Below the pieces are notes generated by a model, which did no database searches, had not been told where the DNA came from, and saw only the letters and a list, made by a program, of their open reading frames with translations. 64,000 nt of DNA from Escherichia coli (lineage in GTDB: Bacteria > Pseudomonadota > Gammaproteobacteria > Enterobacterales > Enterobacteriaceae). How positions within the stretch are numbered: the first letter of the stretch is position 1; each line of letters starts with the position of its first letter. The stretch is from assembly GCF_044324875.1 (NCBI RefSeq), contig NZ_CP172185.1. One strand, given 5' to 3'. The position numbers were made by a program, and so were the translations under genes. Below, one piece after another: positions 1,209 through 36,433 of the stretch.

Positions 1209-2372
1209 TTAGCGGGCGGCTTCGTATATACGGCGGCTGACATCCAGCGTAATGTCATGATTTTCGCCCAGTTGGGTCATGCCGTGCTCTTCCAGTTTTT
1301 TCAGCAAAGCCGGGATGGAGCTGCCGTCCAGACCGTAGTCGGAGAGGTGGGTAGGCACGCCTAATTGCTCAAAGAAATTGCGGGTTGCGGCAATCGCGGC
1401 GTCAATACGCTCATCGTCGGAACCTTCAGTGATGTTCCAGACGCGTTCAGCATATTGCAGCAGCTTAGCGCGCTTGGTATCGCGTTTTTCATTCCACAGT
1501 GCAGGCAGGACGATAGCCAGTGTTTGCGCGTGATCCAGACCGTGCATCGCAGTCAGTTCGTGGCCCAGCATATGCGTTGCCCAGTCCTGCGGTACGCCAG
1601 CGCCAATCAAACCGTTCAGCGCCTGCGTCGCCGCCCACATAACGTTGGCGCGCACATCGTAGTTTTCTGGCTCTTTCAGGGCTTTCGGACCATCTTCGAT
1701 CAGCGTCAACAAAATGCCTTCTGCGAAACGGTCCTGAATTTTGGCATCAACCGGTTTGGTAACATACTGTTCCACGGTGTGTACAAAGGCGTCCACTACA
1801 CCGTTAGCCACCTGACGCGGCGGCAGGGTGTAGGTATAAACCGGATCGAGCACGGCAAATACGGGCTGAACATGGGCAGAATGGAACGCCTGCTTGTCGC
1901 CTGTGGTTTTACGGGAGATCACCGCACCTGCGTTGGATTCTGAACCGGTTGCTGGCAGCGTCAGCACACAGCCCATCGGGATGGCGCTTTTAATCTCTTT
2001 ACCGCCCGTTTGCAGAATGTGCCACGGATCGATATTTTCCGGATAGTTAGCCGCTGCGGCGATAAATTTGGTGCCGTCCAGTACAGAACCGCCGCCAACT
2101 GCCAGCAGGAAAGTCACTTTTTGTTCGCGAACCAGTTTCACGGCGTTCATCAGCGTTTCATAAGCCGGGTTTGGCTCAATACCGCCAAATTCCAGCACGT
2201 CCATGCCTTTCAGGGCATCCAGAACTTGATCGAGAACGCCGGTTTTTTTCACGCTGCCGCCACCGTAGGTAATCAATACGCGAGCATCGTGAGGAATTTG
2301 TTCGCGTAAACCAGCGATTGCGCCTTTACCAAACAGAATGCGGGTTGGGGTGTGCAGATTAAAGTTGTTCAT
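1209..2372 (-). CDS. yqhD: NADPH-dependent aldehyde reductase (iron-containing alcohol dehydrogenase family)
   Basis: ORF 1209..2396; known N-terminus [17 protein letters not shown] begins 8 codons into the track ORF, giving 387 aa; forms the yqhD-dkgA pair. Confidence 0.93.
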
Positions 2373-2508
2373 TACTTGCTCCCTTTGCTGGGCCAATATG
2401 AGGGCAGAGAACGATCTGCCTGATGTTTTTCATTGTGATCGCCAGCGCCCTGGCTCTCAATGCTCATTTCTGCCAATGTCTTGCCTATTTCTCCAGAGTG
2501 CTGGAGAA

Positions 2509-34444: not shown

Positions 34445-35587
34445 ATGGAATGCGATCTGCTGATGATTAAAATTGAAAAAGTAATTAATAAAAATGACCT
34501 TAAGGCATTTATCGCTTTTCCGTCATCACTTTATCCCGACGATCCAAACTGGATACCCCCTTTATTCATTGAACGCAACGAGCATTTGTCTGCGAAAAAT
34601 CCGGGGACGGACCATATCATCTGGCAGGCGTGGGTGGCAAAAAAAGCAGGGCAGATAGTTGGGCGTATTACCGCGCAAATCGATACCTTGCACCGCGAGC
34701 GTTACGGCAAAGATACCGGTCATTTCGGCATGATTGACGCCATTGATGATCCGCAGGTTTTTGCCGCGTTGTTTGGCGCAGCGGAAGCGTGGTTGAAGTC
34801 ACAAGGTGCAAGTAAGATCAGCGGTCCTTTCAGCCTGAATATCAATCAGGAAAGCGGATTACTGATTGAAGGTTTCGATACACCACCCTGTGCGATGATG
34901 CCACACGGCAAACCGTGGTATGCCGCGCATATTGAACAATTGGGTTATCACAAAGGCATTGATTTACTGGCGTGGTGGATGCAGCGAACCGATCTCACTT
35001 TCTCTCCGGCCCTAAAAAAACTGATGGATCAGGTGCGCAAAAAAGTGACCATTCGCTGCATCAATCGCCAGCGGTTTGCCGAAGAGATGCAGATCCTGCG
35101 TGAGATTTTCAACTCTGGCTGGCAGCATAACTGGGGATTTGTGCCGTTTACCGAACATGAGTTCGCGACTATGGGCGATCAGCTTAAGTACCTGGTGCCG
35201 GACGATATGATCTACATCGCCGAGATTGATTCTGCACCCTGTGCGTTTATTGTCGGCTTACCGAACATCAACGAGGCGATTGCCGATCTGAACGGATCGC
35301 TCTTTCCCTTCGGCTGGGCAAAATTGCTGTGGCGTTTAAAAGTCAGCGGTGTGCGAACTGCGCGAGTACCGCTGATGGGCGTGCGGGACGAGTATCAGTT
35401 TAGCCGCATCGGCCCGGTGATTGCGCTGTTATTGATTGAAGCCTTACGCGATCCGTTTGCCCGCCGGAAGATCGATGCGCTGGAAATGTCATGGATCCTC
35501 GAAACCAATATAGGCATGAATAACATGCTGGAACGCATTGGGGCGGAGCCGTACAAGCGTTACCGATTGTATGAAAAGCAGATTTAA
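34445..35587 (+). CDS. yghO: YghO-family protein, predicted acyl-CoA N-acyltransferase-like fold (intact here)
   Basis: 380-aa ORF MECDLLMIKIEKVINKNDLKAFIAFPSS... adjacent to glcC as yghO is in K-12; fold assignment is from memory. Confidence 0.65.
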   Translation: MECDLLMIKIEKVINKNDLKAFIAFPSSLYPDDPNWIPPLFIERNEHLSAKNPGTDHIIWQAWVAKKAGQIVGRITAQIDTLHRERYGKDTGHFGMIDAIDDPQVFAALFGAAEAWLKSQGASKISGPFSLNINQESGLLIEGFDTPPCAMMPHGKPWYAAHIEQLGYHKGIDLLAWWMQRTDLTFSPALKKLMDQVRKKVTIRCINRQRFAEEMQILREIFNSGWQHNWGFVPFTEHEFATMGDQLKYLVPDDMIYIAEIDSAPCAFIVGLPNINEAIADLNGSLFPFGWAKLLWRLKVSGVRTARVPLMGVRDEYQFSRIGPVIALLLIEALRDPFARRKIDALEMSWILETNIGMNNMLERIGAEPYKRYRLYEKQI

Positions 35588-35607
35588 TACCAGATCCTGT
35601 TAAGCGC

Positions 35608-35656
35608 AGGGGCGATCCCTCGCCCCTCGGGGAAAGGGTTAGGGTGAGGGTGAAAA
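35608..35656. repeat. GC-rich palindromic intergenic element between convergent yghO and glcC
   Basis: AGGGGCGA tccc TCGCCCCT perfect dyad followed by GGGGAAAGGGTTAGGGTGAGGGTG. Confidence 0.4.
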
Positions 35657-35662
35657 CTCGGC

Positions 35663-36433
35663 TCACATTCCCACCTTGTTCATCTCCAGCGGCACCGCCG
35701 AGCGAATCAAATGGTGGCCTTCCAGCTCGATATCGTGGAGATTCTTTTTCACGGTCCGCACATGATCGCGTGCTGCGCGCTGGGCGACGTGCGGCAGCCG
35801 CTGCAACACCGCGTTGTAGATCCGCGCATGCTGGCGATCGATCTGCTTTTTTTGCTGTGGTCGATGGTAGAGATTATTTACGCTGGCAAACACTGAATTA
35901 AACATCAGATCGGTCAATGATTGCAGCGTAAACACCAACACCTGATTGTGAGAAGCCTGACAAATGGCGAGATGGAAAGCGTGATCCAACTGCGCATGTT
36001 CGATCAGCGAAATCTCTTTGTTGTTCTCACTGGCGGCGAGCATTTTTTCATAACAGCGGGTTATCACAACAAAATCAGCCTGGGTTCCCAGCGTTGCCGC
36101 AAGCCTTGCCGATTCACCCTCCAGCAATGCGCGAACGTCGAGCAGATCGTACAGCGTTCGCGGCTGCGTGCTGAACAGATGAATTAGCGGGCTGGTGTCC
36201 TGCACCCGATTAAGCCGTGCGACACGAGAATCGCGACCCTGCGCCGTTTCAATAATCCCGCGCCCGCGCAGCACGGTCAGCCCTTCACGCAGTGCGGAGC
36301 GTGAGAAGCCGAGCTTTTCACACAGTCGACGTTCCGAGGGAAGCGGCTGACCGACCTTCAGTACGCCGTCGATAATTAACCGTTCGATACTCTCTGCAAC
36401 CACTTCGCAAATAGGGCGACGTTCATCTTTCAT
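35663..36433 (-). CDS. glcC: GntR/FadR-family transcriptional activator of the glycolate operon
   Basis: Start MKDERRPICEVVAESIERLIIDGVLKVGQPLPSERRL (codon 21 of track ORF). Confidence 0.9.
   Translation of the reverse strand: MKDERRPICEVVAESIERLIIDGVLKVGQPLPSERRLCEKLGFSRSALREGLTVLRGRGIIETAQGRDSRVARLNRVQDTSPLIHLFSTQPRTLYDLLDVRALLEGESARLAATLGTQADFVVITRCYEKMLAASENNKEISLIEHAQLDHAFHLAICQASHNQVLVFTLQSLTDLMFNSVFASVNNLYHRPQQKKQIDRQHARIYNAVLQRLPHVAQRAARDHVRTVKKNLHDIELEGHHLIRSAVPLEMNKVGM

Follow-up and report, generated by a model that had tools for sequence, protein, structure and literature searches.

What is the GC-rich element that lies between the convergent genes yghO and glcC in this Escherichia coli DNA, and does it carry a signal for either of them? 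The window (the whole stretch of DNA analysed, 64 kb) contains yghO on the + strand, with its TAA stop at 35585-35587, and glcC on the - strand, whose stop reads as TCA on the + strand at 35663-35665. The spacer measures 75 nt from stop to stop, and the element (35604-35660) sits inside it, 8-30 nt from both stop codons. The first-pass annotation had reported a GC-rich dyad and G-tracts between these genes, and the sequence is exactly as it stated: direct reading gives a perfect 8-bp dyad with arms at 35608-35615 and 35620-35627, which reads AGGGGCGA-TCCC-TCGCCCCT (35608-35627) and is followed by CGGGGAAAGGGTTAGGGTGAGGGTG, and four G-tracts lie 3' of the dyad on the + strand, at 35629-35650. 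The same annotation had listed an 88-aa - strand ORF that begins as the translated element; the ORF is present, as a mechanical call only. It runs antisense to the 3' end of yghO and has no PGAP annotation in ChlosBP-23-1 (NZ_CP048603.1), which is 100% identical to the window over 35000-36300 (1,301 nt). The yghO gene of the window (34445-35587) encodes 380 aa and is free of IS5, and in K-12 MG1655 an IS5 overlaps the annotated yghO start.

Each by itself, the dyad and the G-quadruplex (G4) motif are statistically unremarkable. Perfect 8-bp dyads with 3-8 nt loops give 31 overlapping matches in the 64-kb window, at about 20 separate places, compared to 7.3 expected from Markov simulations, and the canonical G4 motif is found once, compared to 0.8 expected. 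The element is non-random because it recurs elsewhere, and not because of the dyad or the G4 motif by themselves. The first-pass annotation had proposed a search of the genome for other copies, and BLAST with 35596-35668 (73 nt) finds 76,487 places, spread over 5,408 of the 5,426 complete E. coli genomes. BoxC-like places number 16 per genome in the median (range 1-28), they are nearly all chromosomal, and the element is thus not unique but one of multiple dispersed copies. Among the matches listed, those at other loci have no annotated gene beneath them, and they cover query positions 1-55 to 1-67 of 35596-35668 with 81-91% identity. The copies compared, at glnH-glnP, yhjD-yhjE, argE-ppc, flgF-flgG, zntA-tusA, and ybcF-purK, match over 43-67 nt with E values down to 5e-8, and similarity to family copies is significant over about 50 nt or more. 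An alignment of nine copies from seven loci over about 60 nt gives the consensus CCTGnnAAGCGCACGGnCnGTCCCCTCGCCCCTTTGGGGAGAGGGTTAGGGTGAGGGGGAAAAC, in which the block GGGTTAGGGTGAGGG is invariant.

Judged by sequence, the yghO-glcC element is a slightly mutated copy of an already known family, BoxC (PIT, TMECO type A, HPG1), and the earlier suggestion of an intergenic repeat family was right, as BLAST, the alignment, and the published consensus agree. The repeat was named BoxC first (Bergler 1992; Bachellier 1999) and was later re-described as PIT (Hoyne & Maher 2000, 2002), TMECO (Holder 2015, PMC4666352), and HPG1/HPG2 (Kaplan 2016, PMC5100583). BoxC is an interspersed intergenic repeat of about 60 nt, with a core of about 35 nt that consists of one C-rich and two G-rich arms. 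The features of the window copy are as follows.

35594-35677, no strand: 84-nt block, in the place of which K-12-type genomes have 9 nt (CTAACTCAG), from allele alignments
35596-35658, + strand: full BoxC unit, which begins with the left flank CCTGTTAAGCGCAGGGGCGAT, continues with the three-block core, and closes with a tail of GAAAAC, from the nine-copy alignment and BLAST
35608-35627, no strand: locus-specific perfect dyad, used by the minimum free energy (MFE) folds, with a left arm that is not conserved in the family
35617-35625, + strand: C-rich arm CCCTCGCCC of the 'mm' subtype (G at the N position), which fits the CCCTCNCCC block
35629-35650, + strand: canonical G-quadruplex motif GGGGAAAGGGTTAGGGTGAGGG, the sole G3+N1-7 x4 motif in the 64-kb window
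35630-35638, + strand: first G-rich arm GGGAAAGGG (consensus GGGNGAGGG; G>A at 35634), from strict and relaxed pattern matching
35639-35641, + strand: second loop TTA, the mark of type A (HPG1) by the definitions of Holder 2015 and Kaplan 2016
35642-35650, + strand: second G-rich arm GGGTGAGGG, the proposed triplex third strand, invariant in nine of nine aligned copies and fitting the consensus
35400-35666, - strand: spurious 88-aa ORF from the mechanical ORF list, which starts MSRVFTLTLTLSPRGEGSPL and has the translated repeat as its N-terminus

The consensus of Holder 2015 is CCCTCNCCC N3-6 GGGNGAGGG N3 GGGNGAGGG[GTC-], with a TTA loop in type A and a CCG loop in type B (PMC4666352). In the window copy, the first loop, between the C-rich arm and the first G-rich arm, is CTCG, and the base after the second G-rich arm is T; because its second loop is TTA, the copy is of type A. 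The strict TMECO pattern has no match in the 64-kb window, and the pattern relaxed at one position has a single match, at 35617-35650, with 0 expected. The strict pattern fails because of one substitution, 35634 G>A, which is the sole departure of the window copy from it; the allele of strain CX12 reads GGGAGAGGG there. Since a 'TMECO mutated' category exists for near-consensus copies (Holder 2015, PMC4666352), we file the window copy as a degenerate member, and the K-12 table of that study lists near-identical sequences. The HPG1 core is GGGAGAGGGTTAGGGTGAGGG, and the HPG1 grouping tolerates one mismatch (Kaplan 2016, PMC5100583); GGGGAAAGGGTTAGGGTGAGGG has four tracts of the G3+N1-7 form and one mismatch to this core. 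Sequence and pattern searches find no second BoxC copy in the 64-kb window, and a covariance-model search of 35400-35850 against Rfam finds nothing with an E value of 10 or below. When the published K-12 and 56-strain tables were searched as text, as far as the supplement of PMC4666352 was accessible, no yghO-glcC entry turned up.

An intact copy at the same locus shows how the window copy has changed. In CX12, the yghO-glcC element reads AGGGGCGGTCCCCTCGCCCCTCGGGGAGAGGGTTAGGGTGAGGGGG, an exact TMECO type A mm that matches the strict pattern. When the window copy is set against this allele and the family consensus, four of its bases or runs prove to be derived: 35615 G>A, the loss of one C in the run 35617-35619, 35634 G>A, and 35651 G>T. 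The family hairpin is formed by the C-rich arm paired with the first G-rich arm. The dyad described at first is a different structure, in which AGGGGCGA of the left flank pairs with TCGCCCCT; its left arm is not conserved in the other aligned copies, and going by this alignment the dyad at 35608-35627 is specific to the yghO-glcC locus and is not the family-defining hairpin. The two compete because the right arm of the dyad overlaps the C-rich arm. With ssDNA energies, the family hairpin is at -4.4 kcal/mol in the window copy versus -7.1 in the intact allele, and the locus-specific dyad is at -9.5 kcal/mol versus -7.9. All MFE folds of the window copy computed without the G4 option (the DNA and the RNA of either strand) use the locus-specific dyad stem. 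The + strand RNA folds at -33.3 kcal/mol (z = -2.3 compared to shuffles), and the folds of the DNA and of the minus-strand RNA do not stand out from shuffles (z from about -0.9 to -1.0). The drift of the window copy would thus have weakened the family hairpin and strengthened the locus hairpin while leaving the G4 motif intact, so the drifted copy is probably less able to form the triplex.

The element stands at yghO-glcC in only 186 of the 5,426 complete E. coli genomes. The junction itself is found in about 4,544 genomes, of which about 96% are without the element, and it has at least five alleles.

K-12 type: 9 nt (CTAACTCAG) for the 84 nt of the window (35594-35677); GlcC ends ...LEMNLS; about 3,070 genomes
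Second 'empty' type: TCACCCCTGC; GlcC ends ...LEMKQG; about 1,285 genomes
Degenerate filled allele, that of the window: GlcC ends ...LEMNKVGM; 172 genomes
Intact filled allele: about 10 genomes, for example CX12
Shigella flexneri allele: yghO 3' end duplicated in tandem together with the left half of the element; glcC frameshifted

The 84-nt block takes in the last codons and the stop of the glcC allele of the window, and E. coli GlcC proteins differ at their C-terminus according to the junction allele (...LEMNLS, ...LEMKQG, ...LEMNQS, and ...LEMNKVGM). Many GlcC protein entries of 315-321 aa are frameshifted variants that run past the usual stop and continue antisense to yghO, in the frame that the spurious 88-aa ORF of the window also uses. 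In the S. flexneri allele (retrieved stretch 2180-2460, reverse strand), the remaining core is without the third arm, and the frameshifted glcC, of 280 aa, reads through the repeat. In BS-01 (NZ_CP172816.1), the element is shown as runs of G and C (GGGGGGGGCCCCTCCCCCCCCCGGGGG...) between otherwise identical flanks, which looks like a base-calling or assembly error in structured G/C-rich sequence and not like a real allele. Over 129 nt, 172 genomes carry the window allele without a single difference, among them the ST131 strain EC958 and SMS-3-5. This identity does not look like rapid ongoing decay, and it could reflect retention or recombinational spread. The number of BoxC-like places is 4 in NZ_CP048603.1, compared to the E. 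coli median of 16, and 2-3 in further genomes with this allele, EC958 among them; a repeat-poor genome thus has a copy at yghO-glcC, where the repeat-rich K-12 has none.

We compared filled and empty spacers at three loci, and their lengths are 84 versus 9 nt at yghO-glcC, 106 versus 39 nt at tauD-hemB, and 55 versus 14 nt at ilvC-ppiC. A clean insertion with target-site duplication is rejected, as the spacers are replaced and direct repeats are found at none of the three loci. At tauD-hemB without BoxC, the whole stop-to-stop spacer is an unrelated 39-nt sequence with its own hairpin, ATGCCGGGTTGGATAACCCGGCAT. Derivation of the empty alleles from the filled one is rejected as well: the empty spacers of 9-10 nt can be aligned with stretches of 7-8 nt in the filled allele (AACTCAG/AACTCGG, and TCACCCCT/TCGCCCCT or the right flank), and these matches are ambiguous, with a chance p of roughly 0.1. 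Among the nearest GlcC homologues outside Escherichia/Shigella are Pseudomonas and Stutzerimonas proteins with about 70% identity and C-termini that cannot be aligned. Because the outgroup GlcC is too distant and its C-terminus unalignable, gain and loss are not polarised. A metagenomic GlcC homologue with 87% identity has no element downstream, and the nearest distant GlcC homologues end ...RLEGW(N/M/A/S). TMECO-carrying loci are unusually variable between strains (Holder 2015, PMC4666352); the junction replacements agree with this variability, and both insertion and deletion are compatible with them.

Taken jointly, we hold with high confidence that the element is a degenerate BoxC copy, a dispensable, structure-prone passenger and not a regulatory signal, and that its folding plausibly lies behind the variability of the junction. 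The copy at yghO-glcC would be a passenger repeat in an early stage of decay and is probably neutral. Transient folding of a single strand during replication or transcription would be the most plausible driver of the indels and rearrangements at this junction; the link between structure and instability in the literature is a correlation (PMC4666352).

A broader origin for the core was also considered. Scanning one genome per species for the strict motif gives at least 120 stretches over 11 genomes, counted among the matches listed. Among these, a Polaromonas MAG has at least 32, an Archangium MAG at least 39, and an unclassified MAG at least 26, and the motif is also listed for Verrucomicrobia, Hyphomicrobiales, Contendobacter, Armatimonadetes, a Bacteroidaceae MAG, and a deltaproteobacterial MAG. 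The flanks of the motif are unrelated in most matches listed. In the MAG JANYBJ01 and the Polaromonas MAG, many matches have flanks in common, of at least 35 nt on the upstream side and about 20 nt on the downstream side, with two subfamilies in JANYBJ01, and because of these shared flanks the core looks there like a module of larger genome-specific repeats. In the Archangium MAG, the motif between co-directional genes usually lies 3-23 nt past the upstream stop, in the sense orientation, by ORF calls that are unreliable at 66% GC. Among the 136 matches listed from other bacteria, positions that the pattern leaves free recur as the same bases: the N of the second G-rich arm is T in 126 and that of the first is A in 131, and the N of the C-rich arm is T in 81 and G in 52. 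Holder 2015 had already reported the motif from 262 proteobacterial genomes, with 3,610 copies, and from cyanobacteria as well (PMC4666352), and the range is therefore only extended here and not discovered.

Holder 2015 found no plasmid association (PMC4666352). We find BoxC-like copies on 447 of 72,556 plasmid records, some of which are megaplasmids, chromids, or mislabelled chromosomes, and 96 of the 447 are predicted to be conjugative; the hosts include Klebsiella, Sinorhizobium, Rhizobium, Azospirillum, Aeromonas, Enterobacter, Citrobacter, and others. Phage records are essentially free of BoxC-like copies. Two Campylobacter phage records, MG065686.1 and MG065691.1, hold three E. coli-like copies each at about 91% identity, which may be contamination or misassembly. 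One reading of these data is that the core of about 35 nt is a pan-bacterial module, spread horizontally or made by some sequence-specific machinery. We count the recurring free-position bases toward it, since they are not obviously required by triplex, hairpin, or G4 folding, and we still consider it unlikely. If it were true, presence and absence at yghO-glcC would be the trace left where such a unit was gained and lost.

Three readings would give the yghO-glcC copy a function in place of passenger status. The first is a REP-like role at the RNA level, in which a 3'-UTR stem-loop would shield the mRNA of yghO, glcC, or both against 3'-5' exonucleases, or Rho would load downstream of glcC on a C-rich antisense transcript. 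The short distance to both stop codons, the -33.3 kcal/mol fold of the + strand RNA, and a G-free, C-rich run of about 24 nt in the glcC-sense RNA are consistent with it, and so is the placement of the family. Both Holder 2015 (PMC4666352) and Kaplan 2016 (PMC5100583) found family elements solely between genes. By Table 1 and Supplementary Table S2 of Holder 2015 (PMC4666352), 7 of 18 K-12 regions with the element lie between convergent genes and 2 of 18 between divergent ones, and the intergenic window copy fits this habit of lying near gene 3' ends and between convergent pairs. An orientation bias, suggested by the first seven loci, which were all sense and just 3' of a gene, is rejected on the K-12 counts: single copies between co-directional genes are 2 sense and 3 antisense, going by the same tables (PMC4666352). 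Naive ORF calls for the 136 matches in other bacteria place 25 sense, 13 antisense, and 58 inside miscalled ORFs. The remaining placement bias is only toward gene 3' ends and convergent pairs, and an orientation bias is unsupported, which counts against the RNA-level role. PIT elements, as Holder 2015 relays the work of Hoyne & Maher (2002), showed neither promoter nor terminator activity, nor any effect on RNA polymerase, in vivo (PMC4666352). With about 96% of the junction genomes doing without the element, we regard the RNA-level role as quite unlikely.

The second reading is a regulatory switch between G4, hairpin, and duplex, as proposed for HPG1/HPG2, in which the locus dyad would sequester the C-rich arm and free the G-tracts. 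The first-pass annotation had raised a G-quadruplex-like structure; the sequence potential is real (motif at 35629-35650), and nothing beyond that potential is supported. The four G-tracts of the window copy are intact despite its substitutions, and ViennaRNA with the G4 option predicts an MFE structure of the dyad hairpin plus a three-layer G4, with G4 parameters that are not calibrated for DNA. For HPG2, Kaplan 2016 observed K+-dependent, G4-like CD, with hairpin-like spectra in Li+/Mg2+ and a duplex when the complement was present (PMC5100583). Against this stand the data of Holder 2015, in which single-stranded family oligonucleotides gave very stable triplex-type CD/NMR signatures, the 18 imino signals in NMR favoured an intrastrand triplex over G4, the duplex formed once the complement was present, and neither guanine protection nor a stable triplex was seen in vivo (PMC4666352). 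As the switch also has no known regulatory phenotype, we find it very unlikely.

The weakest reading, the bidirectional intrinsic terminator suggested in the first-pass annotation, in which the GC-rich hairpin would end the convergent yghO and glcC transcripts, is extremely improbable, because its position between two convergent stop codons, its stable 8-bp GC-rich stem with a 4-nt loop, and the z of -2.3 for the + strand RNA are outweighed by the lack of a T/U-run within 0-2 nt of the stem on either strand (CGGGGAAA follows on the + strand and GCGCTTAA on the - strand), by consensus terminator and promoter scans that find no site at the element, by DNA and minus-strand RNA folds not beyond shuffles, by the inactivity of PIT elements in the published tests as relayed in PMC4666352, and by a stop-to-stop distance of only 6 nt in most genomes, which therefore have no such signal there.

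The passenger reading has little consequence for the window, as the element is a known repeat that most E. coli lack at this locus. It has practical uses: it accounts for the spurious 88-aa ORF, it points to a hypervariable junction whose changes reach into the C-terminus of GlcC, and it warns of a sequence context that is prone to assembly errors. The abundance and spread of the exact three-block sequence across bacteria are the broader question, to which the single yghO-glcC copy adds nothing.

Compared to known systems, the element resembles an intrinsic terminator in its GC-rich stem-loop directly 3' of stop codons, and it differs in having no U-tract on either strand and no consensus-scan match. 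It is like REP/BIME in being a short, structured, multi-copy intergenic repeat with strain-variable presence and in being enriched 3' of genes and between convergent genes, whereas the sequences are unrelated. A REP is a plain imperfect palindrome to which a RAYT transposase belongs; in BoxC a third arm, rich in G, is added, and no mobilising enzyme is known. As to HPG1 (PMC5100583), GGGAAAGGGTTAGGGTGAGGG is one base off the core GGGAGAGGGTTAGGGTGAGGG, within the one-mismatch rule, and all four G-tracts are intact with a C-rich region upstream, although the mismatch of the window copy falls in the first G4 loop. The element has the three-block core of BoxC/PIT/TMECO with the spacing unchanged, a C-arm of the 'mm' form (CCCTCGCCC), and the TTA loop of type A. 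Outside the core, it agrees with the family in its 5' flank (AAGCGCA..G.C..T) and in its tail, GAAAAC, and it likewise occurs between genes near their 3' ends, in multiple copies, and with polymorphism between strains. Unlike the intact family members, the window copy carries 35634 G>A, which breaks the strict pattern and one Watson-Crick pair or triplet, and two left-flank changes that complete the perfect 8-bp dyad overlapping its C-arm.
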